Sequence record: SRR31156797_212
DNA: 64,000 nucleotides
Reading direction: 5' to 3' (one strand)
The position numbers were made by a program, and so were the translations under genes. Each line of letters starts with the position of its first letter. Position 1 is the stretch's first letter. This document shows positions 7,225 to 49,980 of the stretch, in pieces. The notes beneath the pieces were generated by a model. The model was not told the DNA's origin, made no database searches, and worked only from the letters and a program-made list of their open reading frames with translations.

Positions 7225-7247
7225 TATTCCTTTTTACTAAATCTGTA

Positions 7248-9482
<2,235 letters not shown>

Positions 9483-9490
9483 CTATACAA

Positions 9491-18050: not shown

Positions 18051-18074
18051 ATGTAATTCTGAAATTAGTTAAGC

Positions 18075-19154: not shown

Positions 19155-19189
19155 GTTATAATTATTTAAAGTGGTAGAAATGGTGACGA

Positions 19190-19220
19190 TAAAAGACCTG
19201 ATCATTGACCAGGTCTTTTA
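19190..19220 (-). terminator. Intra-operon hairpin/terminator after the second GH92
   Basis: taaaagacctg (19190-19200) / caggtctttta (19210-19220) inverted repeat. Confidence 0.6.
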
Positions 19221-19225
19221 TTGAT

Positions 19226-21571: not shown

Positions 21572-21646
21572 ATGTCTGTATTTTAATGATTTGCTAACAA
21601 CTAAAATTAAGTGATTTTTATCTATAGCAAATTAAATTTTCATTTT

Positions 21647-23965: not shown

Positions 23966-23998
23966 TCTATTGTCATTTTAAGGAAAATACATCCACAT

Positions 23999-31849: not shown

Positions 31850-33433
31850 TTATTCTTTTACTTCTTCTAGTTTCTCCTTACTCCAAGGTACCAATTTCGA
31901 TTGGTAGTAGTTGATGTTTAGAATTTCGAATCGTTCCTGTTGTTTGCCCAAACGAACTTTATATTCGTCCCATGAGTTGTTCTCATCTGGCGACCAGCCC
32001 AATTCTGCATAACCCAACAGACGAGGGAAAACAAGGTATTCTATGTCGTCCATAGTTTCGATCGTTTCTGCCCAAAGTGGCGCTTCAATACCAATAATAT
32101 CTTCTTTGGCAATTCCTTCCACATTGCTTTCCAATGTCCAGTTGTATGCCTTATCTACCTCAAGGTATCCTGCCCAGTGCAATCCAAGCGGAGAAATTGA
32201 ATCGTACTGCATATCTAAATAGGCACGTGTTGCAGGAGACATTATAATCTTAACATTTTGCTTCACTGCCTTTAATGCATTTTTTGGTTTGGTTTGCCAA
32301 AACTGTGCTACCGAACTTTCGTCGAGTGTAGCAGCAGCCACATCGGCCCAACCCATCATTTTCTTGTTGTGAGATTGAACAATCTTCTGCACCTTATTCA
32401 CAAACTTAATGTAGTCCTTTTTCTTGGTAACATGCGATTCGTCGCCACCAATATGAATGTACTCACCCGGAGTAATGGCTGCCAATTCACGAATGACATC
32501 ATCAATAAATTTATAGGTAATCTCTTTATCCGTAGCCAAAGTACTAAAACCAACCCTTGTACCAGTATACAATTCGGTAGCTTTGCCATTAGCATTTAGT
32601 TCAGCATAGGAAGCCAATGCAGCATTGGTATGACCTGGCATATCAATTTCAGGAATAATGGTAATAAAACGATCCTGAGCATATTTTACAATCTCCTTGT
32701 ATTCTTCCTGAGTGTAAAATCCACCTTCACCGCCACCTACTTGAGTGCTTCCTCCAATTTCGGTAAGCTTAGGCCAGGATTTGATCTCAATTCTCCACCC
32801 CTGATCATCGGTAAGGTGCAAATGCAAAACATTCATTTTATAAGCAGCCAAATATTCGATGTATTGCTTTACATCTTCAACACTAAAGAAATGACGAACC
32901 ACATCTAACATGGCACCGCGGTATCCGTATTGCGGGGCATCATTAATGGTTCCGCTGGCAATTAGCCAAGGACCTTTCTGAAGTTTATCCGCTTCGATTT
33001 TAGCTGGCAATAACTGACGGATGGTTTGCACACCACGAAAGATACCTGCCGCTTGAAATGCCTCTAAAGTTATCTTTCTTGAATCGATACTTAGATTGTA
33101 ACCTTCTGCACCTAAATCTTTCTTATCCGGGTTGATAACTAAAGCAATTCCTCTGCTACCTACCGGTTTCTTTAATTCTTTGATTTTTGCTTTAAATCCT
33201 GTAGAAGGTTCAATTAATTCAGCAAGGTAATTAGCAATTTGCTTAAGTTCTTCGTTTCCTGTTTGAACCAAGATTTGAGTGTTTTTTGTCCATTCAAATG
33301 AACTTCCGGTTGCTGTAAGGCTAACTGGTTTTGGGATTAAGTTTTCTTTGCTCAAATCTTTGGGGATAGGTTTTGTACAAGAAAATAGCATAAGGCTAAG
33401 AGCTACTATTCCTATTTGTAAAGTTTTACTCAT
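31850..33433 (-). CDS. GH20 beta-N-acetylhexosaminidase, lipoprotein
   Basis: Lipobox LFSC; YRGAMLDVVRHF, HLHLTDDQGWR, PEIDMPGH, catalytic HIGGDE, PLWAE, FPRL. Confidence 0.95.
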   Translation of the reverse strand: MSKTLQIGIVALSLMLFSCTKPIPKDLSKENLIPKPVSLTATGSSFEWTKNTQILVQTGNEELKQIANYLAELIEPSTGFKAKIKELKKPVGSRGIALVINPDKKDLGAEGYNLSIDSRKITLEAFQAAGIFRGVQTIRQLLPAKIEADKLQKGPWLIASGTINDAPQYGYRGAMLDVVRHFFSVEDVKQYIEYLAAYKMNVLHLHLTDDQGWRIEIKSWPKLTEIGGSTQVGGGEGGFYTQEEYKEIVKYAQDRFITIIPEIDMPGHTNAALASYAELNANGKATELYTGTRVGFSTLATDKEITYKFIDDVIRELAAITPGEYIHIGGDESHVTKKKDYIKFVNKVQKIVQSHNKKMMGWADVAAATLDESSVAQFWQTKPKNALKAVKQNVKIIMSPATRAYLDMQYDSISPLGLHWAGYLEVDKAYNWTLESNVEGIAKEDIIGIEAPLWAETIETMDDIEYLVFPRLLGYAELGWSPDENNSWDEYKVRLGKQQERFEILNINYYQSKLVPWSKEKLEEVKE

Positions 33434-33522: not shown

Positions 33523-33558
33523 AAAAAAAATCGCAGTAAAGCAAGCCTTACCACGATT
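33523..33558 (-). terminator. Intrinsic terminator downstream of galE
   Basis: Minus strand aatcgtggtaaggc / gctttactgcgatt stem (with G-U pairs) followed by a T tract. Confidence 0.75.
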
Positions 33559-33567
33559 GTATATATT

Positions 33568-34599
33568 CTATTTTTCAGTCTCCATAATGTTCGTTTGCCA
33601 TTTCCAGGCAGAAGAGAGTGTTTCGTCCAGCGTACTTTGAGCTGTCCATCCTAACTCCTCGTTTGCAAAAGATGTATCGGCATATATCTGCTCGATATCA
33701 CCTGCTCGGCGATCAACTATCTTATGAGGAACTTTCTCTCCTGTTGCTCTCTCGAATGATTCAATAATTTCAAGTACTGAAACTCCGTTTCCAGTTCCAA
33801 CATTAAAATACTCGTAGTTTCCTTTGTTCTTATCGTTTAACAATCTTTCGATTGCAACTACATGTGCTTTTGCTAAATCAACTACATGAATGTAATCGCG
33901 AATGGCTGATCCGTCAGGTGTATTGTAATCGTCACCAAAAACACTTAGCTCTGGTCTGATACCTGCAACTGTTTGTGTTAAAAATGGAATTAGATTGTTA
34001 GGTACTCCCAATGGCAACTCACCAATTTTAGCTGTTGCATGCGCTCCAATCGGATTGAAATATCTTAAGGCAATTCCTTTTAGTTCTTTATTTGCACCAA
34101 CTGTATCGCGAATGATATCTTCACAGATACTTTTGGTATTTCCATAAGGCGATTCTGCTTCCTTACGAGGTGTTTGTTCGGTTACCGGAAGTTGATCAGG
34201 CTGACCATAAACAGTACATGATGATGAGAAAACCAGATTATTGACCTTAAATTTGCTCATGCATTCCATGATATTCATAAGTGAATTCAAGTTGTTACTG
34301 TAATACATCAAAGGTTTCTCCACCGATTCACCAACAGCTTTTGATGCAGCGAAATGAATAATCGCATCTAGCTTAGTATATTCTTTGAAGAAAGATTTCA
34401 CTTTGTTTTTATCCGTTAAATCAAATTCTTCAAACTTTGGCCGCTTGCCTGTAATCTCTTCAATTTGATCTAAAACCTCAATCTTAGAATTGGAAAGATT
34501 ATCAACAATTACAACTTCGTATCCACTGTTCTGCAACTCTACAACTGTATGAGAGCCAATAAATCCTGTACCACCTGTAACAAGTATCTGTTTTGCCAT
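33568..34599 (-). CDS. galE: UDP-glucose/UDP-GlcNAc 4-epimerase
   Basis: TGGTGFIGSHT, IHFAASKAVGES, FSSSCTVYG, YGNTK catalytic YxxxK, LRYFNP, RDYIHVVDLA. Confidence 0.96.
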   Translation of the reverse strand: MAKQILVTGGTGFIGSHTVVELQNSGYEVVIVDNLSNSKIEVLDQIEEITGKRPKFEEFDLTDKNKVKSFFKEYTKLDAIIHFAASKAVGESVEKPLMYYSNNLNSLMNIMECMSKFKVNNLVFSSSCTVYGQPDQLPVTEQTPRKEAESPYGNTKSICEDIIRDTVGANKELKGIALRYFNPIGAHATAKIGELPLGVPNNLIPFLTQTVAGIRPELSVFGDDYNTPDGSAIRDYIHVVDLAKAHVVAIERLLNDKNKGNYEYFNVGTGNGVSVLEIIESFERATGEKVPHKIVDRRAGDIEQIYADTSFANEELGWTAQSTLDETLSSAWKWQTNIMETEK

Positions 34600-34656
34600 T
34601 ATTCTTCTGCTTTTATATCGAGTATTATAAAACTTAATCGTATTAAATTCCTTTTA

Positions 34657-35616
34657 TTACAAAGATAACTGATCGTTCCAAATTAATGCAGCTGATCCTA
34701 AAATTGCAGCATCCTCTCCCAACTGAGAAGGCAACAAATCGATCTTATCTTTGTAAAGAAAAAGGATGTTCTTTTGCATGGCTTCACGAACCGGATCAAA
34801 TAGTAAATCTCCGGCTTTTGCCAAACCACCAAAAAAGAAAATTGCCCTCGGACTGGTTACCGATGCGACATTAGCCAAAGCTTCGCCCAACATTTTTCCT
34901 GTGTAAGCAAAAATCTCCATGGCTAATAAATCACCTTCATTTGCAGCATCTGCAACCATTTTTGCAGTCAATTGATTGAATGGAACATCTCGCAAAGAAC
35001 TATTTCCCATGTGTTTTGCCAGCATTTTATATGCTGTTCTTTTTACTCCTGTTGCCGACACATAAGTTTCCAAACATCCTCTTCGCCCACATCCACATTC
35101 TCTTCCTCCCGGACGCATGATAATGTGTCCTACTTCACCTGCAAATCCATCATGTCCATAAAGTAGGTCGCCATTCACAACAATACCGCTACCTAAACCT
35201 GTTCCAAGAGTAATTACCATGAAATCACTCATGTCTTTTGCACCACCAAACATTCTTTCGCCCAAAGCTGCAGCATTGGCATCATTAGTTACTTTTACCG
35301 GAACATTTAAGGCATTAGATAATGTCTCGGCAATTGGCAAACTGCCCTTCCAACGAAGGTTAGCTGCATCTTCTATTGTTCCTGTTCTGAAATTTGCATT
35401 TGGAGCACCAACACCTACGCCTATTAATTGAACAGGTTCACTTATCGTCTTTAATGCCTCTCCAATTTCAGCCAATAAATCCTTGCAATAATCTTCAAAT
35501 GTTTCTCTGGTTTGAGTTGGGATACTTCCACCAAATAACGATTTTCCGCTATTGTCGATACATCCGAAAACGGTATTTGTACCTCCTATATCTATTCCTA
35601 ATGCAATTTTAATCAT
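34657..35616 (-). CDS. ROK family sugar kinase (glucokinase/GlcNAc kinase-like)
   Basis: GIDIGGT ATP motif, NDANAAALGE, TLGTGLGSG, GEVGH...CGCGRRGCLE; no HTH; ATG at 35616 preferred over GTG at 35640. Confidence 0.9.
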   Translation of the reverse strand: MIKIALGIDIGGTNTVFGCIDNSGKSLFGGSIPTQTRETFEDYCKDLLAEIGEALKTISEPVQLIGVGVGAPNANFRTGTIEDAANLRWKGSLPIAETLSNALNVPVKVTNDANAAALGERMFGGAKDMSDFMVITLGTGLGSGIVVNGDLLYGHDGFAGEVGHIIMRPGGRECGCGRRGCLETYVSATGVKRTAYKMLAKHMGNSSLRDVPFNQLTAKMVADAANEGDLLAMEIFAYTGKMLGEALANVASVTSPRAIFFFGGLAKAGDLLFDPVREAMQKNILFLYKDKIDLLPSQLGEDAAILGSAALIWNDQLSL

Positions 35617-35687
35617 TATTTTCTCAATGTCTTTTCTCACTTTTGTTCAATACTTCAGAACAAGAGCTAAGTTCTCTTTAAAGCTAC

Positions 35688-36329
35688 TTATTCTAAAATC
35701 AGTTTACCAAAGGATGATGGTATATGAAAATCAGGCTCTGGAACCTCTGGATTTACCCAAGAAATCCATCTCAATTCAGCCTCTTTCTGATCAGCAGGTA
35801 ACTTCATACAGTAGCCTCTATACAAGCCTGCTTCTAAAAGATTGTCTTTTAACAAACCTAAATTCTCTAATGAGGATAGATTGATAAAGCCTTCTACTAC
35901 ATATCCTTTCCCATTCTTAGATGCTTTTACCTCCATATTTTCGGCTAGCCATTCCCAATTAAAATCAAAATCCCGATAATAATTCGCTTTATAATCCAGC
36001 ACTCTTGCATGGGCATCCATCTCCAAACAGTAGTAAGGAGTTAAGTTCTCATCTTTTCTGAAAAATATTTCCACACGATCCGAGTCAACCACCTCCATTT
36101 TATGGTTCTGATCAACAAATGTAAGTACATTTTTATCTTCTACATCAAATCTAAAATAAAATTTCTTATCGTCATGTAAAGCTCTAAATGATGTAAGCGG
36201 AGCTTTAAACTCCTCCCAAGGATAGTTAAATTCGGTATTTACATTGGCCATATCCCAAACAGGGTGCATTTTATCTCCTGATATTTCCAAAATATCAGAC
36301 TTAATTCTTTTTACGATATATTCCTTCAT
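35688..36329 (-). CDS. CBM9-like/DOMON-fold sugar-binding domain protein, no signal peptide
   Basis: T.FRALHD...FYFRFDVED, DSDRVEIF, YYCLEMD, GYVVEG.I, GLYR, W...PEPDFH..FG pattern recognised as CBM9-like; ATG at 36329. Confidence 0.65.
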   Translation of the reverse strand: MKEYIVKRIKSDILEISGDKMHPVWDMANVNTEFNYPWEEFKAPLTSFRALHDDKKFYFRFDVEDKNVLTFVDQNHKMEVVDSDRVEIFFRKDENLTPYYCLEMDAHARVLDYKANYYRDFDFNWEWLAENMEVKASKNGKGYVVEGFINLSSLENLGLLKDNLLEAGLYRGYCMKLPADQKEAELRWISWVNPEVPEPDFHIPSSFGKLILE

Positions 36330-36337
36330 CAACTAAG

Positions 36338-36373
36338 AAAAAAAAGGGCCGAAGGATAAGAATCCTCCGACCC
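36338..36373 (-). terminator. Intrinsic terminator after the nagB-like gene
   Basis: Minus strand gggtcggaggat-tctt-atccttcggccc followed by T8. Confidence 0.8.
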
Positions 36374-36394
36374 AGAGGTATTTATGTGTGGTAC

Positions 36395-38722
36395 TTAAAA
36401 CGGATTTTCTTCAACTGCTTTTTCCAAGTCTTGTGCCATTGCAACGAATTCATCGGCAGTCATTTCTTTCATGTAAACCAAACCATGAGTAGCTCTTACC
36501 AATGGGTGATTGTTCTCGTAAAAGAAATTCTTACCTAATAACAATTGAATTTGCTTTAATTGTTGAACCCAAACCTTTTGAGTCAACTCATTAAATTTGC
36601 CATCGTACTCGTAACTTGGGAAAGATGCATTTACCTGACTCATGTAACTTTCGGTAAATGAATTTTCCAATACATCTAATGCATTTAATGATACTGGCAC
36701 AATGGTATCGGCTTCAGCTGGATGATACTTAAACCAAACATTACGATAGCCAATAATTCGTAATTTCGATAAATCTTCTTCCTCTTTCCACTCTTTAACA
36801 GCTCCTGCAATTGCTTGCAAAACTTTATAGTGAGTATCAGGACCACTTCCTTCAGGATCCATAGCCAAACTGATAATACTTGGCTTGTGCTTTCTAAATT
36901 CTTCCAAAACAGGAAGCATATCTCTATTCTTCTCAGGTAATTCTGTAAATACATCACCTTTGTAGAATCCAAGACGTAAATGATGAATATTTTTAACCGG
37001 AGTTCCAAAGTGAGCCCAAACTAGCTCTTCTTCAAACTCACGAATCATTCCTTTCATTTTCTGAACCTCAGGAGAATTCTTTCCTCCATCGTAACTACTT
37101 TCCAAATCGTTAATGATAAAAGCAATAGTTTCATTCAGGTGCTCTTTATTTTTAACTTTCCAGGTTTCAACAATAGAACGAATTACACGGTGGCAAAGAC
37201 CCCTTCTCTTTCCATTAGCATTTCTTGCTGCAACAGAATTCAAGAAGTGATAAACATCCTTGTCCCACTTCTTGCTATATCCAATCTCGAAGAAATCAGG
37301 ATACTCCAGCATTTGGATTGCACCATTGGCAATAAACTCCTGACACTCTTTCAATACACCAATAACAAAACCATTGGTTACTGCTGTAAATCCAGAAGTA
37401 AGTACTGAGAAGTGAATATCATTACTTGCCGAACGCATCTGACGATTTGTATAAGGCATCATTCCCAACATGATATCATCGTGGTGAGGTCCTGTATGAT
37501 AAATCACCTCATTGGTATCAGGTTTCATTCCTTTTTCCAGCTTCCCTTTAATAGAATCGATAACTGTTTGAACAGTCCCTTCATTTAAATTTGGAATTTG
37601 GCTAGTATATGGATCGGCTTTTAGATCTTCCATTGTTAAATGGTGACCATACTTATTTATCTTCTTACAAAGATCAATTACAGATCTTTCAGATTTAGCA
37701 TGAGACCAATCTCCTTTTTTGTAAAACTGATCTACACTATCAGTCAACTTGCAAGCTGCACCTGTAGTCAGGTAAAAACGGCTATTTTTCTGACGTTGTA
37801 GAACCGAAGCAGGATAAACCGCATCTGGCTTACTTTCCAATGAACCTTTAACAATATCTGCTTTAGCTTCACCCGCGGCAAATATGATTGAAACAGCATC
37901 CGGATCGTGAGTAATTGTATCTAAACCAATGGTAATCACCAAACGATTTCTTGATACCTCGATACCACCTAAGTCACCAGCGGCAACTGCTTGTGTTTCA
38001 AAATTGGTTTTAGTTAATCGTGTTGTAGAGTAATGATCTGAGCCACGCGTATTAAAGGCAATGTGACCATCAGGTCCAATTCCTCCAAGGAAAAAACCAA
38101 TTCCTCCTTTATCGCGAATCTGCTGTTCGTAAGAAGTACACCAATTGTCAATCATGAAAATTGATTTTTGCTGCATTTCTTCGACAACGCTTGTAGCCTC
38201 GCGATAACGTAGAGACAAATCAATATTGTAATCAGGGAAAACTTCCAAAAAGTGCTTGTTATCCACCAATGGAATTTCCTCTGAATTAATAAGTAATGAA
38301 TTGGATTTCTCCAAGCCAAAACCATCAATGTAGTACTTCATCACATAGTTGTAGAAACTATTGTGCTGACGTGGATCAATTGGGTAAAACTCATCGATCT
38401 GAACAAACTGCAATCCTCTTAAATCTGGTTTAGCCATATTCCCCAATCCGTATTGTCCACGGATATCCATACCTTTGGCATTGTTCCAGTTCTCTAAAAG
38501 ATACTGTGTGTACTTGATAAAATACTCAGGTGTTTTACCTGTTGGCAAACTGATTACCCCCTGAGGATTTTGCTCTGTCCACTCCAAAAATCGAAGTGAA
38601 GTCATTAAACCCAATTTTGGGAAATTATCAACTGTTACATAAGGTATTTGAGTTGTAATTTCCGGCACTCCTGATAAATCATGAAATGCTTGCTCTACTT
38701 TTGATGTAAATAATGTTCCCAT
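36395..38722 (-). CDS. nagB: Glucosamine-6-phosphate deaminase-like domain fused to a PIG-L/LmbE-like deacetylase domain
   Basis: N-terminal half: SLPTGKTP, QIDEFY, LGGIGPDGHIAFN, ITIGL, GEAKA, PASVLQ; C-terminal half: GPHHDDIMLG, R..E, GPDTH. Confidence 0.8.
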   Translation of the reverse strand: MGTLFTSKVEQAFHDLSGVPEITTQIPYVTVDNFPKLGLMTSLRFLEWTEQNPQGVISLPTGKTPEYFIKYTQYLLENWNNAKGMDIRGQYGLGNMAKPDLRGLQFVQIDEFYPIDPRQHNSFYNYVMKYYIDGFGLEKSNSLLINSEEIPLVDNKHFLEVFPDYNIDLSLRYREATSVVEEMQQKSIFMIDNWCTSYEQQIRDKGGIGFFLGGIGPDGHIAFNTRGSDHYSTTRLTKTNFETQAVAAGDLGGIEVSRNRLVITIGLDTITHDPDAVSIIFAAGEAKADIVKGSLESKPDAVYPASVLQRQKNSRFYLTTGAACKLTDSVDQFYKKGDWSHAKSERSVIDLCKKINKYGHHLTMEDLKADPYTSQIPNLNEGTVQTVIDSIKGKLEKGMKPDTNEVIYHTGPHHDDIMLGMMPYTNRQMRSASNDIHFSVLTSGFTAVTNGFVIGVLKECQEFIANGAIQMLEYPDFFEIGYSKKWDKDVYHFLNSVAARNANGKRRGLCHRVIRSIVETWKVKNKEHLNETIAFIINDLESSYDGGKNSPEVQKMKGMIREFEEELVWAHFGTPVKNIHHLRLGFYKGDVFTELPEKNRDMLPVLEEFRKHKPSIISLAMDPEGSGPDTHYKVLQAIAGAVKEWKEEEDLSKLRIIGYRNVWFKYHPAEADTIVPVSLNALDVLENSFTESYMSQVNASFPSYEYDGKFNELTQKVWVQQLKQIQLLLGKNFFYENNHPLVRATHGLVYMKEMTADEFVAMAQDLEKAVEENPF

Positions 38723-38851
38723 TTTCTTTTTTATTTCTATAATCTCTAAACCTTACTCGTTTAAAACCTGCAGTTTAAAAGAAACTACCTATTTTAAAAT
38801 TCGCTACCACACGATTAAATACCGGGTCTGGTATCAGAAATAAAATTCTAA

Positions 38852-39955
38852 TTACACTGACAATTCTTTGCTATATTCAATAACCACTTGCTTCATTTGC
38901 TTGAACTGATCTTCCACACTTCTCAACAGTTTGTATTGAGCATGAGTTCTTATCAAGTTGTGCTGTGGCGATTTAATTTTATAATATTGATCTCCGTTGA
39001 TGTAATCCATCAAAAATCGAAGAACTTGTTCAAAGGTGATGTATCTCGCAGAAAATGCCAGATACTCCAACTCTGTATTGGTTAAAAATGAGACTGTTTC
39101 TTCCAAATATCCTTTGGTATAAGCTTTGAATATTTCCATATCCATACTTACATTTTCCAGATTCTCGTCATCTTCCAATCCTGTATTTGTGTAGGATCTC
39201 ATAGCATCGCCATAATCGTTTAGTACGGTACTATTCAATACTGTATCCAAATCGATTACACACAAATCATTACCATCCTTATCGAAAAGAATATTGTTGA
39301 TTTTGGTATCGTTATGAGTTACTCTTGAAGGTATTCTACCATCCTCTACCAACTCCCAAAACTCAAGCATCTCAGCTCTTCTCTCCTCAATCCAGGAAAT
39401 CTCTTTAGCTAAATCTTTCTTTCTGTTTACAGGATCTGATTCTAAAATCTCATCCCACTGTTCAAATCGAAATCGGATGTTGTGAAAGCCTGGTAAAATA
39501 TCTACCAAAGGTTCTTTCATATCCGCCAACATCGCCTGAAATTTTCCTATTCCTTTTCCTCCTGCATAAGCCAATTCAGGACTATCTGCCGATTCATAAG
39601 TGATATTATCCTTGATAAAAAGGCAAAGTGTCCAAAAATCTCCTTCCTCATCCTGGAAATAAGGATTTCCATTCTCCACTTCAATAATTGTCATTGCCTC
39701 ACGACTTGGATCTCCTCCAGCAATTTCAATTTTTGATTTAAGATGTGCCGATACTTTTTGGATATTCCTCATCATTCCGGGAACATCCTTAAAAATATTT
39801 TTATTTTTTCTCTGAAAAAGATAATCAGGATCGTCTTGAGCCTTGGTCTTCACCAAAAAAGTATCATTGATGAATCCCTCTCCCAATGGTTGAATGGTTT
39901 CAACCGTTCCTTCAGTCTTAAACTTCGATACTATTGTATATAAGTTCTTGTTCAT
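38852..39955 (-). CDS. APH/choline-kinase-fold phosphotransferase, N-acetylhexosamine 1-kinase (NahK)-like
   Basis: GEGFINDTF, RVTHNDTKINNILF, VIDLDTV, DYGDAMR, RFLMDYINGD.YYKI, HNLIR - NahK/LnpB-type signature. Confidence 0.85.
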   Translation of the reverse strand: MNKNLYTIVSKFKTEGTVETIQPLGEGFINDTFLVKTKAQDDPDYLFQRKNKNIFKDVPGMMRNIQKVSAHLKSKIEIAGGDPSREAMTIIEVENGNPYFQDEEGDFWTLCLFIKDNITYESADSPELAYAGGKGIGKFQAMLADMKEPLVDILPGFHNIRFRFEQWDEILESDPVNRKKDLAKEISWIEERRAEMLEFWELVEDGRIPSRVTHNDTKINNILFDKDGNDLCVIDLDTVLNSTVLNDYGDAMRSYTNTGLEDDENLENVSMDMEIFKAYTKGYLEETVSFLTNTELEYLAFSARYITFEQVLRFLMDYINGDQYYKIKSPQHNLIRTHAQYKLLRSVEDQFKQMKQVVIEYSKELSV

Positions 39956-39991
39956 TTGATCTTAATAATTCTGGATGTGACTAAAGAAAAA

Positions 39992-40033
39992 TTCTGCAAT
40001 TCCAATGGTATTACCAACATTACAATTGCAGAA
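39992..40033 (-). terminator. Hairpin/terminator after the MFS transporter
   Basis: ttctgcaatt / aattgcagaa inverted repeat followed on the minus strand by tttttcttt. Confidence 0.55.
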
Positions 40034-40042
40034 CTGTATTCT

Positions 40043-41356
40043 TTATTTTCCTAATTCTGCACTTGTTTCATTACTATTTACACCACCTGGTTTCCAAGAG
40101 CGTATTTTATATCCCTTAACGGCATAGAAAAAGATGAACATGTAACATGGAACAACAACCCAATAGGCTTGTTGTGTGCTAAATACATCAGATAAACGTC
40201 CCCATATTAATGGTAAAATTGCACCACCCGAAATTGCCATTACCAATAAGGCTGAACCTGTATTGATAAAACTACCTAAGCCAGATAGAGCAAGAGGCCA
40301 AATTGCAGGCCAAACCAAAGCGTTTGCCAATCCGAACATTGCTACAAAAATCACGGAAGTTATTCCTGAAGTGAATATTGCTCCAAATGCAAATAAAATA
40401 CCTAAAACAGCAGATACTTTAAGAGCAAAACGCTGATCAATTACTTTAGGTATAAGTGTTACTCCCAATAAATAACCAACAACCATTGTTACCATAGTGT
40501 ATGATGTAAATGCTTTTGCCGTATCCAATTCGATACCTAATGAAAGTCCATAATTAATTATTGTATCACCAGCAATCACCTCGGCTCCTACATAAAAGAA
40601 CAACGCAAGAACTCCCAAAATAAGGTGAGGGAATGCCATAATTGAATTCTTCTTTTTCTCGCCATTTTCCGCTTTTGCATCTTCCTCATTTGTTTCAATT
40701 TCAGGAAGCGGAGCCAAACGAACACCAATTCCCATCACAACCAAAACAATAGTCATTACGATATATGGATTGATTACTCTGGCAGCTAATGAATCCAATG
40801 CTGCAACACGTGCAGTTGCATCCATTGCTTTCAAACTTTCAACAAAAGCATCACCATCGTTAAGAATGTAGTAAGCTAAAATTAGTGGAGCCATTGCACC
40901 TGCAAACTTGTTACAGATACCTAAAATACTGATTCTTCGAGCGGCACTTTCTTTAGGTCCAATAATGGTAACATAAGGATTCGAGGCTGTTTGCAATAAT
41001 GCTAATCCGGTTCCCATTACGAACAATCCGGTTAAGAAAACACTAAAAGTTCTCGACATGGCAGCAGGAATAAATATCATAGTACCAACGGCCATAACCA
41101 ATAATCCAACCATCATACCATTCTTAAAGCCCGTTTTCTTCAAAACCCAGGCTGATGGTAAAGCCATAATCGTATAAGCGATATAAAATGCAAATGCTAC
41201 AAATAATGCCTGGAAATCGGTTAGCTGACAAGCTATTTTCAAGTATGGAATTAATATCCCATTCAACCAGGTTACAAAACCGAAAATAAAGAACAATGCT
41301 CCAATGATAATCATTGGTAGAATAAAGTTCTTAAATGAAGATTTAGAAGTACTCAT
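40043..41356 (-). CDS. MFS sugar:H+ symporter, FucP/GluP (NagP-like) family
   Basis: LFFIFGFVTWLN, LLQTASNPYV..IGP..SAARR, FFYVGAEV, ANALVWPAIWPLAL, LVMAISGGA; about 12 hydrophobic segments. Confidence 0.92.
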   Translation of the reverse strand: MSTSKSSFKNFILPMIIIGALFFIFGFVTWLNGILIPYLKIACQLTDFQALFVAFAFYIAYTIMALPSAWVLKKTGFKNGMMVGLLVMAVGTMIFIPAAMSRTFSVFLTGLFVMGTGLALLQTASNPYVTIIGPKESAARRISILGICNKFAGAMAPLILAYYILNDGDAFVESLKAMDATARVAALDSLAARVINPYIVMTIVLVVMGIGVRLAPLPEIETNEEDAKAENGEKKKNSIMAFPHLILGVLALFFYVGAEVIAGDTIINYGLSLGIELDTAKAFTSYTMVTMVVGYLLGVTLIPKVIDQRFALKVSAVLGILFAFGAIFTSGITSVIFVAMFGLANALVWPAIWPLALSGLGSFINTGSALLVMAISGGAILPLIWGRLSDVFSTQQAYWVVVPCYMFIFFYAVKGYKIRSWKPGGVNSNETSAELGK

Positions 41357-41402
41357 GTTGGTTTAAGTTTTAAAAATCAATCTTTTACAATAGATTATTT
41401 CG

Positions 41403-42782
41403 TTATTTTTTTATTTTCATCAGTTGTTTTACACAGGCAACCAAATCGTTAGCATACTCCTGAGTTTTAGCTTCAGAATAAATGCGAATAATTGGTTCAG
41501 TATTTGATTTTCTTAAGTGAACCCATCCTTCCGGAAAAGTTATCTTAACACCATCAATGGTATTGCATGGGTAATCAATGAATTTTCGTCTTATTTGCTC
41601 AAGAATTCCATTAAGATCACTTACACCTTCCAATTGTATTTTATCTTTTACAATCTTGTGATCAGGATATTTAGCACGCAATTCGGAAGAAGTCATTTTA
41701 GATTTAGCTAAGTAGGTTAGAAATAAAGCTACTCCAACTAATGCATCTCTGCCGTAATGTAGCTCAGGATATATAACACCACCGTTTCCTTCCCCTCCAA
41801 TCACAGCTGATTGCTTTTTCATTTCGCAAACAACATTTACTTCACCTACGGCTGATTCAAAAAATTCAACACCATGCTTTTCAGCAATCTCGCGCAAAGC
41901 CATTGTTGATGATAAGTTTGCAGCAAGACTTCCCTTTGTATTTTCAAGAACATAATCTGCTATTGAAACCAAAGTATACTCTTCTCCAAAAGGCTTTCCA
42001 TTATCACAAACCATTGCCAAACGATCCACATCAGGATCGACAATAATTCCCAAATCCAAATTCTCATTCCTCACCAATTCAGAAATTTCCACAATATTTT
42101 CGGGAAGTGGTTCTGGGTTATGAGCAAAATTACCATCGGGATTGCAATTGATTTCTTTAATGTTTTTTACCCCAAGGGACTTTAACAATTGAGGAATAGC
42201 AATACCTCCAACCGAGTTTACTGCATCAACAGCAATCGAAAAATTTGCCTCCTCAATCAACTTTGCATCAACCAAGGGTAAATTAAGAATATGCTGAATA
42301 TGAGTCTCTAAGTAATTTTCATTTAAGGAATATTTCCCTAAATCATCAACCTCATTGTATTTAAATTCCTGTTTTTCAACAAGGTTTAACAAATCCTTTC
42401 CATCCTGATCGTTAATAAACTCACCTTTATTATTTAGTAATTTTAAGGCGTTCCAATTCTTTGGATTATGACTTGCGGTGATAATAATTCCACCACCAGC
42501 TTTCATATCTACAACTGCCATTTCAACTGTAGGTGTAGAGGCTAAGCCTAAATCCACAACTTCAACTCCAACAGAAAGTAAGGCTCCTACTACCAACTGG
42601 TTAACCATTTCGCCACTCATTCTGGCATCACGACCAATTACGATCTTTTTATTCGCTCCACTATTTCGAAGCCACATTCCAAATGCACCTGAAATACTAA
42701 CAATGTCCATAGGAGTTAAGGCTTGTCCAGGACGACCACCAATAGTTCCTCTAATTCCTGATATCGATTTTATTAATGTCAT
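41403..42782 (-). CDS. glmM: Alpha-D-phosphohexomutase (phosphoglucosamine mutase-like)
   Basis: SISGIRG, phosphoserine loop TASHNP, metal loop DPDVDR, GGEGNGG, RKSNTEP.IRIYSE. Confidence 0.85.
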   Translation of the reverse strand: MTLIKSISGIRGTIGGRPGQALTPMDIVSISGAFGMWLRNSGANKKIVIGRDARMSGEMVNQLVVGALLSVGVEVVDLGLASTPTVEMAVVDMKAGGGIIITASHNPKNWNALKLLNNKGEFINDQDGKDLLNLVEKQEFKYNEVDDLGKYSLNENYLETHIQHILNLPLVDAKLIEEANFSIAVDAVNSVGGIAIPQLLKSLGVKNIKEINCNPDGNFAHNPEPLPENIVEISELVRNENLDLGIIVDPDVDRLAMVCDNGKPFGEEYTLVSIADYVLENTKGSLAANLSSTMALREIAEKHGVEFFESAVGEVNVVCEMKKQSAVIGGEGNGGVIYPELHYGRDALVGVALFLTYLAKSKMTSSELRAKYPDHKIVKDKIQLEGVSDLNGILEQIRRKFIDYPCNTIDGVKITFPEGWVHLRKSNTEPIIRIYSEAKTQEYANDLVACVKQLMKIKK

Positions 42783-42794
42783 AGGTTTGTCCTC

Positions 42795-43697
42795 TTACTT
42801 ATCCCAAAGTTTTGCTGGATAAACTCCAGATTTAATCAGTGCTTCAATAGCTTTAATGGCCTTTTCTTTATCTTCTTTGTAGGTTACTCCGAACCATTGT
42901 GCATTTGATTTTAGCACTTTAAATTGTGCCTCATCATTACCAATAATTTCAGCTATTACTGATGGAATGTAGAATTCAGATTTCAACTGATCTCCTTGCT
43001 CTTTTAGGAAATCTTTAAACTGATCTTCTAAATGCTCGAATAACTTTGGAGTAAATCCCCAAAAGTTCATCGACACTGTAGTTGATTCTTCTAATGGATA
43101 CCATTTCTCATTCTCAAGATATGCGATATCTTCAACTAGTTTTTCGATATGAGTACGTTCCACAATAGTGGTTAACTGTTCGTTCTCATTTGTAGAACAA
43201 ACACCTCTTGAAACCGATCCGTTCTCAGAAATGGTATTCGCTAAACGATAACCAACCATGCAATTCTCAGCATCGCTAATTGAATTGATAAGGTAATCAG
43301 CTATGGTTTTAAAAGCTTCAACTCCGTAATAATCATCTGCATTAATCACCGCGAAAGGCTCATTAATACAATCCTTTGCCATCAAAATGGCATGACCTGT
43401 TCCCCATGGTTTTTCTCTATCCGGATGATATAAAAATCCTTCAGGAACTTTCGCTAAATCCTGATTAACGTAATCAACCTCTATCTTTCCCTGTAATTTT
43501 GAATTGTATAATTCTTTAAATTCCTTTTCGAAACTTTCACGAATAACAAAAACAATCTTTCCAAACCCGGCTTTAATTGCATCATGAATTGAATAATCAA
43601 TAATAGTTTCGTTTGATGGTCCGATTGGGTCCATTTGTTTTAAGCCTCCATATCGACTTCCCATTCCCGCAGCTAATACCAATAATGTGGGTTTCAT
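42795..43697 (-). CDS. Sugar-1-phosphate nucleotidyltransferase (NTP_transferase fold)
   Basis: LAAGMGSRYGGLKQ, KPWGTGHA, VINADDYYG, VSRG, SMNFWGF, WFGVTY. Confidence 0.88.
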   Translation of the reverse strand: MKPTLLVLAAGMGSRYGGLKQMDPIGPSNETIIDYSIHDAIKAGFGKIVFVIRESFEKEFKELYNSKLQGKIEVDYVNQDLAKVPEGFLYHPDREKPWGTGHAILMAKDCINEPFAVINADDYYGVEAFKTIADYLINSISDAENCMVGYRLANTISENGSVSRGVCSTNENEQLTTIVERTHIEKLVEDIAYLENEKWYPLEESTTVSMNFWGFTPKLFEHLEDQFKDFLKEQGDQLKSEFYIPSVIAEIIGNDEAQFKVLKSNAQWFGVTYKEDKEKAIKAIEALIKSGVYPAKLWDK

Positions 43698-43734
43698 ATC
43701 AATCTTCTCCTTTGTTAATTTTTAGTTTCATAAA

Positions 43735-43814
43735 AAGTGAAAGGTAATCATCCGGCAAACACTACTACTACAATATTTTTTACCTAAAATAACAGATGAT
43801 TACCTTAATCACTT
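43735..43814 (-). repeat. Hairpin A of a tandem pair with a shared loop motif
   Basis: Stem aaggtaatcatc (43741-43752) / gatgattacctt (43795-43806), extended by aagtga/tcactt; loop contains aacactactactacaat (43758-43774). Confidence 0.7.
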
Positions 43815-43821
43815 ATCTTAT

Positions 43822-43889
43822 AAAATTGATTCCCGCAAGAACACTACTTCTACAATTTCACCAAATGAAAAACCGCAGGAATCAATTTT
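43822..43889 (-). repeat. Hairpin B of a tandem pair with a shared loop motif
   Basis: Stem aaaattgattcc (43822-43833) / ggaatcaatttt (43878-43889), extended by G-U pairs on the minus strand; loop contains aacactacttctacaat (43840-43856). Confidence 0.7.
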
Positions 43890-43892
43890 CAC

Positions 43893-45119
43893 CTAATTAT
43901 TACTAAATGTTTTTTTCATCACATTAGCCATCGTACCCATTAAAGCAGCATCCTCTAATAAGTCGGAACTAACCAGCTCAGTTTCCGAGCTAATTCTGTC
44001 CATGGCATATTTATTCATCGACATGCTTACCGGATCGATAATATATTTTCCGGCCGGTGCCAATTTTCCTCCAATTATTATCATTTCAGGATTCAACAGG
44101 TGAATTAAGGTCACAAGTCCTTTCCCAAGATATTCACACATTTTATTCAACTGATCAATGGCGAACTGATCTCCCGACAAAATAGCTTCAACCACTGCTC
44201 TCAAGTCTATTTTCTGCTCTCTCTCTTTGTGTTTTGCCAAAAAACTTTCCTGTCCGTTATCAATGGCTTCACGAATTTGTCTAACCAAAATCTTACCAGA
44301 TGTTAAGGTCTCTAAACATCCAATTTTACCACAATGACAAAGTTTACCATCAGGATCAATTAAAATATGCCCGAATTCACCGGCAAAACCATTTTTACCA
44401 CTGTGCAATTCTCCATTTAAAATCATTCCCAAACCAATCCCATTGCTAAGATTTAGGCACAAAACATTTTTCTTATCCTTAGCTTTACCAAAAGCTTTCT
44501 CACCCAAAGCCATTGTACGTGCATCATTATCCATTAGAACACGACATTCAAATAATCCTTCCAAATGTGCAGCCAATCCTTCTTGAGCAAAGGTTAGATG
44601 TGTGTGACTAAGACCTTTCTCGGCATCAACCAAACCGGGAATCGAAACTCCTACAGATAAAACCTTCTCTTTAGAAATATCCATTTCGTCAAGAGCTAAT
44701 TTCACTTTATCTCTTAAGCCATTTGTATAACGAATTGTATTTTCAAGTTCACAATTCTGATATTCTTTACGATAAACCAATTGATTGTTCAAATCAAAAA
44801 TGGCAATATTCAAAGTATGTAAGTTAATATCAACACCAACTACATATTGATATTTTGGATTAATACAAAACAAATTTGGTCTTCTTCCACCTATCGATTC
44901 ACCAATACCATTGTCCAATATCACACCAAAACCAATTAAATCTTCAACAAGAGAAGCAACCAATGGCTGGCTCAATTTTGAGGATTTTACAATTTCCGCA
45001 ATCGATGCCGTTTTGGTATCATATAAATGGGATACAATTTTTCGATATTGTTCCTGCTTCCTCTTTTTTGAATTAACGGTTCCCGTTAAGCACTTTTCGT
45101 ATTGAAATTCTGGCTTCAA
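43893..45119 (-). CDS. ROK family transcriptional repressor (NagC/XylR-like)
   Basis: N-terminal wHTH (SIAEIVKSSKLSQPLV..LVEDL), linker S.GGRRP, ROK domain DNDARTMALGE, GEFGH...CHCGKIGCLE; TTG start. Confidence 0.92.
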   Translation of the reverse strand: MKPEFQYEKCLTGTVNSKKRKQEQYRKIVSHLYDTKTASIAEIVKSSKLSQPLVASLVEDLIGFGVILDNGIGESIGGRRPNLFCINPKYQYVVGVDINLHTLNIAIFDLNNQLVYRKEYQNCELENTIRYTNGLRDKVKLALDEMDISKEKVLSVGVSIPGLVDAEKGLSHTHLTFAQEGLAAHLEGLFECRVLMDNDARTMALGEKAFGKAKDKKNVLCLNLSNGIGLGMILNGELHSGKNGFAGEFGHILIDPDGKLCHCGKIGCLETLTSGKILVRQIREAIDNGQESFLAKHKEREQKIDLRAVVEAILSGDQFAIDQLNKMCEYLGKGLVTLIHLLNPEMIIIGGKLAPAGKYIIDPVSMSMNKYAMDRISSETELVSSDLLEDAALMGTMANVMKKTFSNN

Positions 45120-45300: not shown

Positions 45301-48480
<3,180 letters not shown>

Positions 48481-48495
48481 CTAAATATTTTTTAA

Positions 48496-49980
48496 TTAAT
48501 GAACATTCAACTGACCTTTTGAATCTGCTTTTCTTAAATTACGAACACTTGTACTTCCAGCTCCCTTCATACTCAAATCAATCGGTTGATTTGTCTTCCA
48601 AGCTCCTCTGGTAAAATCAGGAATATCAATTGGTCGTGAACCATTGGCAATAGACCACTCACTAAGTGGCGTAATACAACTCCAGGAAGCTGCATCGTAA
48701 ACATCCATATCTACTGGCAATCCATTACGCAAGCAATCGATTAATCTCCAATCCATTACAAAATCCATTCCTCCATGACCTCCAACTTGCTTGGCCATTT
48801 CACCTACTCGACGTATTATTTCCGGAGTGTATTTATCTTCCAGTTCCTTAAATTGAGCCTGATCGATTACATTGTGTCCAAATGCAATGTGTTGCTTAGG
48901 CCATTTTTGTGCAAAACACTTGGTTCCACTCAACATATGAATTCTAGAATATGGGCGAGGAGAACTGATATCATGCTGAATCATAATTGTACGTCCTTTA
49001 TTGGTACGAATCATTTGCATATCCATATTTCCACGCATCTCCCATCCCACAAACTTTTCGAAGAATGGATCCTCTTTTGCCATTTCAGCAATTCTATGTT
49101 TTAAGGTAAAATCATCGGACATCATGGATGTTAGGTAATCCATTTTATCACCTCTATTGATATCCATTGCCTGGCAAATTGGTCCTAATCCATGAGTTGG
49201 ATATACATTTGCTTTACGTTTGTTTTCATGTAAACGCCACATTTTTGTGTAAGCACCATCACTCATTTTATCATCTTTTGGCTTATTAAAGTGCCAGTAA
49301 TCCAAATCGTGAATGTAAGCACCTTCGCCATGTATCAAATCTCCAAATGCTCCTTGCTGTGCCATGCTAATGGTCAACATTTCAAAAAAGTCATAACAAC
49401 AATTTTCCAAAATCACACAATGCTTTTTGGTTCGCTCCGACGTTTCAACCATTTGCCAGCATTCGTCCATGGTTTTTGCTGTAGATACTTCAACAGCGGT
49501 ATGCTTTTCACCTTCCATTGCTGCAATAGCAACAGGAACATGCCATTCCCATGGAGTAGCAATGTACACCAAATCAACATCTCCACTATCACAAAGTGCT
49601 TTAAAGCCCTTATCACCATCTACATATTCTTTGGCCTTTGGTAAACCTGCATCAGATAATATTTTCTGAGCTCCATCAACTGCCGCCTGACGAATATCAC
49701 AAACAGCTGTAATTTCAACTCCCTCAATATAAGTCATTCGTTTTACTGCACCAGAACCCCGATCACCAATACCAACAAAACCAACTCTTACGGTATCCAA
49801 TTTTGGAGCAGCATAACCACACATATTAAAGTTCATTTTAGGCTGCTTTTCAGCATTCTTCTTAATGTATGATAACTTACTTTCTTCTTTCGATTCTGCA
49901 CATGATGCTAAAGGTGCAGCTGCAAGTACTCCTGCTCCAAGGGCAAGATTACTTAAAAATGATCTTCTGTTTGTTGCCAT
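48496..49980 (-). CDS. GH109 NAD+-dependent alpha-N-acetylgalactosaminidase, Tat-exported lipoprotein
   Basis: Tat motif NRRSFL and LASC; VGIGDRG Rossmann; ATPWEWH, LENCCY, YPTHG, catalytic GGHGGMD. Confidence 0.9.
   Translation of the reverse strand: MATNRRSFLSNLALGAGVLAAAPLASCAESKEESKLSYIKKNAEKQPKMNFNMCGYAAPKLDTVRVGFVGIGDRGSGAVKRMTYIEGVEITAVCDIRQAAVDGAQKILSDAGLPKAKEYVDGDKGFKALCDSGDVDLVYIATPWEWHVPVAIAAMEGEKHTAVEVSTAKTMDECWQMVETSERTKKHCVILENCCYDFFEMLTISMAQQGAFGDLIHGEGAYIHDLDYWHFNKPKDDKMSDGAYTKMWRLHENKRKANVYPTHGLGPICQAMDINRGDKMDYLTSMMSDDFTLKHRIAEMAKEDPFFEKFVGWEMRGNMDMQMIRTNKGRTIMIQHDISSPRPYSRIHMLSGTKCFAQKWPKQHIAFGHNVIDQAQFKELEDKYTPEIIRRVGEMAKQVGGHGGMDFVMDWRLIDCLRNGLPVDMDVYDAASWSCITPLSEWSIANGSRPIDIPDFTRGAWKTNQPIDLSMKGAGSTSVRNLRKADSKGQLNVH

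Follow-up and report, generated by a model that had tools for sequence, protein, structure and literature searches.

Gene content of the locus

In a 64,000-nucleotide (nt) stretch of DNA from sequence record SRR31156797_212 (the window, by which we mean that whole stretch), a same-strand gene cluster at 33568..45119 was described in an original prediction as an apparently complete Leloir-type route for the catabolism of N-acetylgalactosamine (GalNAc), running through 1-phosphate and uridine diphosphate (UDP) sugars and including neither nagA nor aga genes. Open reading frame (ORF) listing together with Pfam and NCBIfam searches recovered all eight cluster genes where they had been placed, each on the minus strand, and by their domains the two genes directly upstream on that strand indeed encode glycoside hydrolases of families 109 (GH109) and 2 (GH2). 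Every named gene was thus borne out, but a CBM9-like ORF (35688-36332) and two strong terminator-like hairpins had been overlooked. As for the broader claim, the observation is confirmed and its interpretation as a GalNAc route is partly supported. The features of the locus are as follows.

48496-49980, minus strand: GH109 enzyme of the α-N-acetylgalactosaminidase type, first gene of the upstream block, probably periplasmic; PF21252 Glyco_hydro_109_C at 137.5 bits plus a GFO_IDH_MocA Rossmann domain
45301-48480, minus strand: GH2 β-galactosidase of the LacZ type; five GH2 domains, NF052611 at 1072.6 bits (cut-off 999)
43893-45119, minus strand: NagC-like ROK regulator of 408 amino acids (aa), with a TTG start and an N-terminal extension; PF00480 over residues 94-399
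43698-43892, minus strand: leader of 195 nt with two long hairpins (RNA fold)
42795-43697, minus strand: NTP_transferase protein of 300 aa, 3PNN family; PF00483 at 41.4 bits
41403-42782, minus strand: four-domain phosphohexomutase of the archaeal-GlmM type; TIGR03990 at 508.9 bits (cut-off 439)
40043-41356, minus strand: sugar importer of the major facilitator superfamily (MFS), NagP/GluP/FucP type; NF046060 NagP and TIGR01272 gluP
38852-39955, minus strand: APH-family kinase of the NahK/BT4240 type; PF01636 at 52.7 bits and NahK structures
36395-38722, minus strand: 775-aa fusion of a NagB-like and a PIG-L-like domain; PRK02122, motifs and fold
36346-36373, minus strand: terminator-like hairpin separating the fusion and CBM9-like genes, a stem of 12 pairs followed by T8
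35688-36332, minus strand: CBM9-like protein of 214 aa; PF06452 CBM9_1 at 65.3 bits
34657-35640, minus strand: ROK sugar kinase of 327 aa; PF00480 at 217.8 bits, TIGR00744
33568-34599, minus strand: GalE UDP-hexose 4-epimerase; TIGR01179 at 406.6 bits (cut-off 262.3)
33529-33558, minus strand: terminator-like hairpin 3' of galE, 13 pairs then a T run
31850-33433, minus strand: GH20 β-N-acetylhexosaminidase, last gene of the block; PF00728 at 307 bits and PF02838 at 79 bits

Further upstream of the GH109 and GH2 genes lie genes for a DUF5077/DUF3472 protein, SusD and SusC. The window derives from a marine member of the Bacteroidales, a Marinifilum species. Its G+C content is 32-39%, and almost every gene between 169 and 56442 is on the minus strand.

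The gene order recurs in related genomes

We performed a kinase-centred search with one genome per species and compared the 55 loci that were fetched with the kinase. The best of these (L001), from an assembly titled uncultured Marinifilum sp., is 99% identical, and the next loci by kinase, which belong to Labilibaculum, Marinifilum and Ancylomarina, are 72-80% identical. Genome-wide statements below rest on five relatives (G002-G006), among which the L001 genome is not included, and on genome samples; the order sample comprises 101 evenly drawn genomes.

In 12 of the 55 loci, with titles naming Marinifilum, Labilibaculum, Ancylomarina or Marinifilaceae, the same gene order is kept, or as much of it as lies within the contig. 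Both transferase and kinase are in the cluster in 11 of these Marinifilaceae loci, the twelfth (L005) beginning at the kinase, and the ROK regulator heads the cluster in all 11 loci that extend that far upstream. The GH20 gene also follows the cluster in L001 and L006. The transferase gene lies directly upstream of the kinase gene in another eight loci (Draconibacterium, Mariniphaga, Tangfeifania and Prolixibacteraceae), and in 35 the kinase has no transferase within the stretch covered, several such loci being short. Because the gene order recurs in 12 loci and the transferase-kinase adjacency in 8 of the 55, the arrangement is beyond chance.

The kinase is of the NahK/BT4240 type

The kinase aligns over residues 2-360 with the Bifidobacterium NahK structures 4ocu, 4wh1 and 4ocj (E 5.5e-69 to 4.3e-66). 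It retains the motifs VTHNDTKxNNIL and IDLDT, and VTHNDTKINNIL and IDLDT align with the same residues of 4ocu; in such kinases, the HNDxxxNN loop is catalytic and DLD binds the metal. No NCBIfam model matched the protein. With a full-length match at E 5.5e-69 and its motifs kept, the predicted NahK-like 1-kinase is clearly of the NahK/BT4240 type, and kinases 57-80% identical to it are found across Bacteroidales and in Maribacter.

By analogy, the kinase would phosphorylate O1 of GalNAc and of N-acetylglucosamine (GlcNAc), an activity which the main text of a recent report describes as demonstrated for both B. longum NahK and BT4240 of Bacteroides thetaiotaomicron (PMC11992087). As described there, BT4240 is 39% identical to NahK, phosphorylates O1 with a ~275-fold preference for GalNAc over GlcNAc and is the sole such kinase of the B. 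thetaiotaomicron genome. It is encoded together with a GH2 β-1,3-galactosidase (BT4241), an MFS protein and a GH109 enzyme (BT4243), and growth on GalNAc depends on it, as does about half of that on chondroitin sulphate (PMC11992087). The main text of that report does not contain the words UDP, epimerase, uridylyltransferase, pyrophosphorylase, mutase, deacetylase, Leloir or tagatose, and therefore leaves the fate of GalNAc-1-P open.

A 3PNN-family nucleotidyltransferase accompanies the kinase

The only strong solved relative of the transferase is PDB entry 3pnn, a "conserved domain protein" (E 1.8e-99). The next structures are GalU-type enzymes, which match at E 1e-7 and weaker and over the N-terminal nucleotide-binding part only. 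Five families were matched at E<=0.001, and no MurU (NF045761, NF045697) or GlmU model is among them. Public names of the family are generic, such as "nucleotidyltransferase family protein" or "UTP-glucose-1-phosphate uridylyltransferase". We propose that the protein is a uridylyltransferase for N-acetylhexosamine (HexNAc) 1-phosphates, that is, a UDP-GalNAc/UDP-GlcNAc pyrophosphorylase.

The distribution of the two genes ties them closely together. In the order sample, the transferase occurs in 59 genomes and the kinase in 35, and all 35 kinase-positive genomes hold the transferase as well (Fisher p 1.4e-11, uncorrected for kinship). The same is true of five of five extra kinase-positive genomes (by title two Maribacter, two Dysgonomonas and one Prevotella sp.), so that the transferase is present in 40/40 NahK-positive genomes examined. 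By listed coordinates, the two genes lie <=5 kb apart in 11/35 kinase-positive genomes, and pairs within 5 kb include kinases merely 31-43% identical to that of the window. Moreover, one Draconibacterium genome has two transferase copies, each adjoining a NahK homologue; one of them is part of a transferase-mutase-kinase operon beside a convergent DUF3472-SusD-SusC block. The NTP_transferase fold, the gene order and the co-occurrence thus agree with the predicted link between a pyrophosphorylase-fold transferase and the kinase.

A mutase paralogue, an importer, a ROK kinase and a CBM9-like protein

In the phosphohexomutase, the loops TASHNP, DPDVDR, GEGNGG and RKSNTEP are all present. Relatives with a cluster mutase hold two copies, the one in the cluster being 80-85% identical to that of the window and the other, elsewhere in the genome, 59-61%; Marinifilum caeruleilacunae, which has no cluster mutase, has the second type only. 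Since a second, ~60% identical copy lies elsewhere in relatives, the cluster mutase is an extra paralogue, which fits a pathway-specific role. The predicted GlmM-like paralogue is thus found both in its TIGR03990 score, which is over the cut-off, and in the existence of a separate second copy. The reaction that we propose for it is the interconversion of GlcNAc-1-P and GlcNAc-6-P. Its GEGNGG loop resembles what we take to be the motif of eukaryotic GlcNAc-phosphate mutases, a resemblance that serves only as a lead.

The MFS importer scores 457 bits against the NagP model NF046060 (below its cut-off of 625) and 300 bits against the gluP model TIGR01272 (cut-off 202.6). Labilibaculum and most Ancylomarina loci have a different MFS protein, 37-40% identical, in the importer position. 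The ROK kinase, with 252.1 bits, falls just below the 260.35 cut-off of the ROK glucokinase family TIGR00744, and we propose that it is a GlcNAc (and glucose) 6-kinase.

The CBM9-like ORF is flanked by the fusion and ROK kinase genes, and it follows the fusion gene in 11 Marinifilaceae loci. No signal peptide is visible in its translation, it has no solved relative at E<0.4, and its look-alikes in the Atlas are CBM9-like clusters without names, which come from Verrucomicrobiota, Bacteroidota and Planctomycetota. This would place a cytoplasmic "carbohydrate-binding" fold inside an amino-sugar operon.

A 775-residue NagB/PIG-L fusion as a possible stand-in for NagA

The 775-aa protein lies below the Pfam gathering scores of both of its halves (PF01182, 19.0 vs 27 bits; PF02585, 14.3 vs 28.2 bits). 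It also falls below the cut-offs of the long "glucosamine-6-phosphate deaminase-like" model PRK02122 (184.8 bits, cut-off 384) and of the NagB model TIGR00502 (78 bits, cut-off 237). A structure model, built from 34 family members, has a predicted local distance difference test score (pLDDT) of 92.2 and a predicted template modelling score (pTM) of 0.88, and reveals a NagB fold at ~25-340 and a PIG-L/LmbE-fold deacetylase with insertions at ~405-775. Foldseek matches the former to the NagB chains 3hn6, 1ne7, 2bkv and 1dea, which are covered whole (E ~1e-14, template modelling score on target 0.81-0.91), and the latter to LnmX (5bmo, E 5e-5) and diacetylchitobiose deacetylase (8bgo, E 9e-5). 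Both folds of the predicted NagB-deacetylase fusion are therefore found.

In an alignment of the 34 family members, which are 26-88% identical to the window protein, the residues kept in the NagB half are D110 (in 26), D218 (28), H220 (30) and N224 (34), and those in the PIG-L half H413 (28), D415 (31), D416 (33) and H631 (30). The His-x-Asp-Asp motif and the distal His of PIG-L proteins are the metal and base residues, as in MshB. The family, publicly named "glucosamine-6-phosphate isomerase / PIG-L deacetylase", counts 245 representatives at E<=1e-30 in a 50%-clustered library. Its gene is the most conserved of the cluster: because the protein is 88-94% identical between genera where its neighbours are 58-92% identical (loci L002-L033), selection on it appears to be unusually strong.

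The family occurs in 21/101 genomes of the order sample, 13 of which are kinase-positive, as against 22 of the 80 others (p 0.005). In two Ancylomarina genomes, the fusion is the only NagB-like gene; Labilibaculum and M. caeruleilacunae also hold a 667-aa long NagB form, and in Draconibacterium a ROK regulator, the 775-aa gene and a canonical nagB stand in a row. In keeping with the prediction, nagA is absent from the window ORFs and is over the cut-off (TIGR00221) in 0/4 relatives. These observations and the modelled fold would fit a fusion protein that stands in for NagA as GlcNAc-6-P deacetylase, and its NagB-like half may be catalytic as a GlcN-6-P deaminase.

In the order sample as a whole, nagA is over the cut-off in 1/101 genomes and found at E<=1e-40 in 4/101. 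An anti-correlation between nagA and the fusion was considered and cannot be claimed, as two of these four genomes also have the fusion family. Neither bifunctional GlmU (0/5 relatives) nor NagA (1/101) is usual in these Bacteroidales, and therefore UDP-GlcNAc synthesis and GlcNAc-6-P deacetylation must use non-textbook enzymes group-wide.

Regulation and transcription

The NagC model aligns over residues 39-400 of the ROK regulator with 206.5 bits, below its cut-off of 650. The leader between this gene and that of the transferase (43698-43892) folds with -51.9 kcal/mol (z -4.83; 0/200 shuffles as good), and each of its loops carries one copy of ATTGTAG(A/T)AGTAGTGTT, a 17-nt motif confined, within the window, to these two copies. 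In 7/75 loci, all Marinifilum or Labilibaculum, the region upstream of the transferase gene contains a 14-nt core of this motif. It may serve as an operator for the ROK regulator or as an attenuator. Rfam has no family at gathering score in 31000-57500, a search for a shared operator over ten upstream regions returned AT-rich noise only, and a sigma-70 promoter scan was uninformative (60 sites vs 70.1 expected).

Because of the terminator-like hairpins at 36373-36346 and 33558-33529, the cluster is probably read as two or three transcription units, followed by GH20. Their positions suggest the units transferase-mutase-MFS-kinase-fusion, CBM9-ROK kinase-GalE, and GH20. Contigs of two marine-sediment RNA-seq libraries, from one study, match with 0-3 differences over 151-320 letters, and pieces of them cover the transferase, MFS and kinase genes and the whole leader. 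They are consistent with transcription, carry-over of DNA being possible.

Other features of the window

The DUF5077+DUF3472 protein (443 aa; 50194-51525, minus strand) is encoded between SusD and GH109. A 52% identical homologue in Draconibacterium (L056, 13684-15015) adjoins the transferase-mutase-kinase operon and SusC/SusD. By its neighbourhood, it may be an uncharacterised glycan-active enzyme for GalNAc-containing substrates; a literature search for DUF3472 returned only papers on centipede venom and a Drosophila virus, and nothing relevant.

A second minus-strand locus (15120-24757 and 4936-11740) encodes an extracytoplasmic function (ECF) sigma/anti-sigma pair, SusC/SusD, three GH92, two BSP-family peptidases, two GH3 and one GH97. 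By these families, it looks like an N-glycan or mannan locus adjoining the GalNAc locus. An ORF at 61047-62435 (plus strand) has a NapC/NirT-type cytochrome c domain and an FGE-sulfatase-like domain, an unusual pairing; it is preceded by a hybrid two-component regulator and followed by a GFO/IDH/MocA oxidoreductase.

A proposed route for HexNAc utilisation

We put at roughly an even chance the following reading, in which the cluster is the cytoplasmic half of a Marinifilum HexNAc utilisation locus behind the SusC/SusD, GH109 and GH2 block. The GH109, GH2 and GH20 enzymes would release GalNAc, galactose and GlcNAc in the periplasm, and the MFS protein would take up the free HexNAc. The NahK-type kinase would then use ATP to produce GalNAc-1-P (and GlcNAc-1-P), from which the 3PNN-family transferase would make UDP-HexNAc and pyrophosphate (PPi) with UTP, and GalE would convert UDP-GalNAc into UDP-GlcNAc. 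The latter could go to envelope synthesis, or back to GlcNAc-1-P through the same transferase and PPi, in which case UTP and PPi would cycle at a net cost of one ATP. The cluster mutase would yield GlcNAc-6-P, which the ROK kinase would also form directly from GlcNAc. The PIG-L-like domain of the 775-aa protein would deacetylate it in place of the missing NagA, and the NagB-like domain, or a separate NagB where present, would produce fructose-6-P and ammonia, the whole gene set being controlled by the NagC-like ROK regulator.

Gene content, families, folds, gene order and co-occurrence, on which this scheme is built, are observed; every step past the kinase, and the direction of flux, we infer from them. 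The kinase-transferase(-mutase) module and the NagA-free deacetylase/deaminase are well backed by the comparisons above, and the epimerase step and the reversal of the pyrophosphorylase are surmised. Somewhat less probable, and held tentatively, is a generalisation to the phylum: that Bacteroidota catabolise GalNAc by a pyrophosphorylase-driven UDP-sugar cycle, with the 3PNN transferase working both ways and also being the stand-alone UDP-GlcNAc pyrophosphorylase of the phylum, an archaeal-type mutase paralogue for acetylated sugar phosphates and the 775-aa fusion protein replacing NagA.

The term "Leloir-type" in the original prediction did not hold. GalT, the HIT-family enzyme that defines the Leloir pathway by exchanging UMP between UDP-glucose and the sugar-1-phosphate, has no domain match among the 33 window ORFs of at least 150 aa, the cluster enzyme has a pyrophosphorylase fold, and the kinase belongs to the APH family and not to the GHMP family of Leloir galactokinases. 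Class I galT is present in 5/5 relatives, away from the cluster and in two of them near a second galE. A true Leloir pathway for galactose thus appears to exist elsewhere in the relatives, and the name is therefore unfit for the proposed GalNAc route.

Evidence against the route and rival explanations

Several findings weigh against the catabolic route, whose weakest link is the epimerase. In our alignment, Ile305 of GalE stands opposite Cys307 of human GALE. According to the accessible text of PMC6668579, epimerases active on UDP-HexNAc have a small Cys or Ser there (Cys299 in the bifidobacterial GalE) and those for UDP-glucose/UDP-galactose a Tyr or Leu, and swapping this residue switches the specificity of the E. 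coli and human enzymes. GalE lacks the mark of group 2/3 epimerases (Cys/Ser, large C5 pocket), and Ile itself is outside the rule as given in that text. Ile is also found in 8/8 close GalE copies of the five relatives, be they cluster copies, near-galT copies or sole copies. Subfunctionalisation of GalE, which we considered, is ruled out at the specificity position, as cluster and non-cluster copies all have Ile; the cluster GalE is therefore not specialised and looks like a general GalE. Its gene is inside the cluster in 4/12 Marinifilaceae loci (L001, L003, L005, L006) and absent from the Ancylomarina clusters, a single close copy lying elsewhere in two Ancylomarina genomes. As for the mutase, the two paralogues share all four signature loops, so that a preference for GlcN-P or GlcNAc-P is not readable from the motifs, and the gene is missing from the cluster in 2/11 Marinifilaceae loci that cover its place (L004, L006). 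The fusion protein lacks a Glu after the AFN motif, where V, L, T and M are the four commonest residues among the 34 members; in E. coli NagB this Glu is catalytic, along with the Asp of DEY and Asp-x-His. The NagB-like domain as a whole is divergent, far below the NagB cut-offs.

The transferase raises the question of salvage. Kinase and transferase could turn scavenged GalNAc and GlcNAc into UDP-sugars that supply peptidoglycan, lipopolysaccharide, capsule or protein glycosylation, the mutase running anabolically from GlcNAc-6-P to GlcNAc-1-P; only GlcNAc would then be burnt, by the ROK kinase and the fusion protein, and no GalNAc carbon would reach fructose-6-P through the cluster. We regard salvage alone as unlikely, yet as a serious rival to the catabolic route. 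The transferase is the single copy of its family in 3/3 Marinifilaceae genomes searched and is present in 24/66 kinase-negative genomes of the order sample, and 6/7 of the kinase-negative neighbourhoods inspected consist of unrelated housekeeping genes, including those for ApbE, orotidine monophosphate (OMP) decarboxylase, 1-deoxyxylulose-5-phosphate (DXP) synthase, a MutS-domain protein and purD (PurD-type glycinamide ribonucleotide (GAR) synthetase domains); the seventh reads ROK regulator-MFS-transferase. Bifunctional GlmU is over the cut-off in 0/5 relatives. Because it is single-copy, has housekeeping neighbourhoods and is not accompanied by a bifunctional GlmU over the cut-off, the transferase probably also makes UDP-GlcNAc for biosynthesis, and it may simply be the general UDP-GlcNAc pyrophosphorylase. 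The proviso of the original prediction that the genes might be sole housekeeping copies thus applies perhaps in part, to the transferase. The accessible text of PMC4358021 describes GlmU_Cc (Ccan_15070), a monofunctional GlcNAc-1-P uridylyltransferase that is indispensable to Capnocytophaga canimorsus, an organism living on scavenged GlcNAc. A 334-aa RmlA-long/Arch_GlmU-like protein of Labilibaculum (L057) is another candidate for such a stand-alone role in UDP-GlcNAc synthesis. Salvage also has a precedent in the AmgK-MurU pair of kinase and uridylyltransferase, and it would accommodate a GalE without HexNAc signature. What speaks for catabolism instead is that B. thetaiotaomicron needs a kinase of the orthologous type for growth on GalNAc as carbon source, so that in this species, going by the main text of PMC11992087, carbon passes through GalNAc-1-P. 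In addition, searches for nagA, agaS and the aldolase revealed no alternative GalNAc route in the relatives, a NagC-like regulator heads the cluster, its setting is one of glycan degradation, and the deacetylase/deaminase gene lies in the apparent transcription unit of the kinase.

Two further explanations seem to us quite improbable. The carbon might leave at the 6-phosphate level, the mutase converting GalNAc-1-P to GalNAc-6-P and the fusion protein deacetylating it and isomerising GalN-6-P to tagatose-6-P, like AgaA and AgaI/AgaS, with transferase and GalE as bystanders. In line with this, the NagB-like domain matches the galactosamine-6-phosphate isomerase model NF007291 (E 3.1e-9), the fusion is unusually conserved and divergent from ordinary NagB, and the mutase gene adjoins that of the kinase in several loci; NagB models outscore the AgaI model, however, and the tight, repeated pairing of transferase and kinase would be left unexplained. 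Moreover, agaS and tagatose-bisphosphate aldolase are each over the cut-off in 0/5 relatives, which agrees with the predicted lack of aga genes and argues against a GalNAc-6-P/tagatose route. Just as little credence can be given to a chance neighbourhood, in which housekeeping genes (a glmM-like gene, a UDP-sugar pyrophosphorylase, galE and a glucokinase) have come to lie beside a GlcNAc operon and share no GalNAc pathway. GalE and the transferase do resemble general-purpose copies and terminator-like hairpins divide the cluster, but the order of the genes has been preserved in four named genera, between which the proteins share only 58-94% identity, the transferase-kinase pair recurs in many lineages at 31-70% kinase identity, and the cluster mutase is an extra paralogue.

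Significance and comparison with known systems

GalNAc is the sugar through which every mucin O-glycan is anchored, and half of chondroitin consists of it. If true, the catabolic route would join the Aga and the galacto-N-biose/lacto-N-biose (GNB/LNB) pathways as a third way in which bacteria use GalNAc and would supply the steps missing after the BT4240-type GalNAc kinase, with candidate enzymes for each post-kinase step side by side in one cluster. It would give testable functions to the 3PNN-type nucleotidyltransferase, the GlmM-like paralogue and the 775-aa family, and would explain GlcNAc-6-P deacetylation in Bacteroidales without nagA. If salvage is true instead, the locus shows scavenged amino sugars being fed straight into envelope synthesis. 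Our literature search, with subscription journals and supplements outside it, found no described route past GalNAc-1-P in Bacteroidota, and the accessible text of a 2026 CRISPR interference (CRISPRi) study of mucin use covers genes for GlcNAc and galactose and names none for GalNAc (PMC13634575).

The nearest counterpart in gene content is the BT4240-BT4243 operon of B. thetaiotaomicron, in which, as far as its published description goes, the same four families (kinase, GH2, MFS and GH109) are encoded on one strand. Kinase homologues from Bacteroides-labelled metagenome-assembled genomes are 59-61% identical to that of the window and lie beside GH109 (L014). Unlike in the operon as described, candidate downstream enzymes are encoded with the kinase in the window cluster.

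The E. coli/Shewanella Aga pathway runs from GalNAc-6-P through AgaA, AgaS/AgaI, tagatose-6-P kinase and tagatose-bisphosphate aldolase. It shares with our proposal the substrate GalNAc and a deacetylation step, but acts at the 6-phosphate level without UDP-sugars, and in the relatives its AgaS and aldolase are not over the cut-off (0/5). In eukaryotes, GalNAc is salvaged by GALK2, AGX1/UAP1 and GALE, and galactose can take the Isselbacher pyrophosphorylase route. The chemistry proposed here is the same, with an anomeric kinase, a UTP-dependent pyrophosphorylase and a 4-epimerase; unlike in the eukaryotic salvage, our kinase has an APH fold and not a GHMP fold, the pyrophosphorylase is of another family, and the proposed direction is catabolic, not anabolic. 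AmgK and MurU recycle cell-wall sugars in Pseudomonas and Tannerella, and they too pair an APH-fold anomeric kinase with a small NTP_transferase-fold uridylyltransferase. In contrast to that pair, there is no MurU model match here, the kinase is much closer to NahK, and the context is glycan degradation and not muropeptide recycling. A likeness to GlmU_Cc of C. canimorsus, drawn from the role described for it in the accessible text and not from sequence, lies in a stand-alone Bacteroidota uridylyltransferase where relatives have no bifunctional GlmU over the cut-off (PMC4358021).

Closest in its logic is the system of the bifidobacteria, to which the window cluster compares as follows. The GNB/LNB pathway of Bifidobacterium longum consists of the phosphorylase LnpA, LnpB (NahK), the GalT-type LnpC and LnpD (GalE). 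Shared features are a NahK-type kinase, galE in the cluster and, as proposed here, HexNAc-1-P and UDP-HexNAc intermediates with a GlcNAc-1-P end product that feeds amino-sugar catabolism. In contrast to the bifidobacterial pathway, Pfam finds neither a GH112 phosphorylase nor a GalT/HIT enzyme in the 33 window ORFs of at least 150 aa, GH2, GH109 and GH20 hydrolases being present instead. The uridylyl step would fall to a pyrophosphorylase of the NTP_transferase fold, an MFS protein takes the place of the ATP-binding cassette (ABC) system in import, GalE has Ile in the place of Cys299, and the cluster also encodes the mutase and the deacetylase/deaminase. The cluster thus provides a concrete candidate for the steps, so far undescribed, that follow the Bacteroides GalNAc kinase reported in 2025, and the proposed route is a plausible, testable variant of the bifidobacterial HexNAc-1-P/UDP-HexNAc logic.

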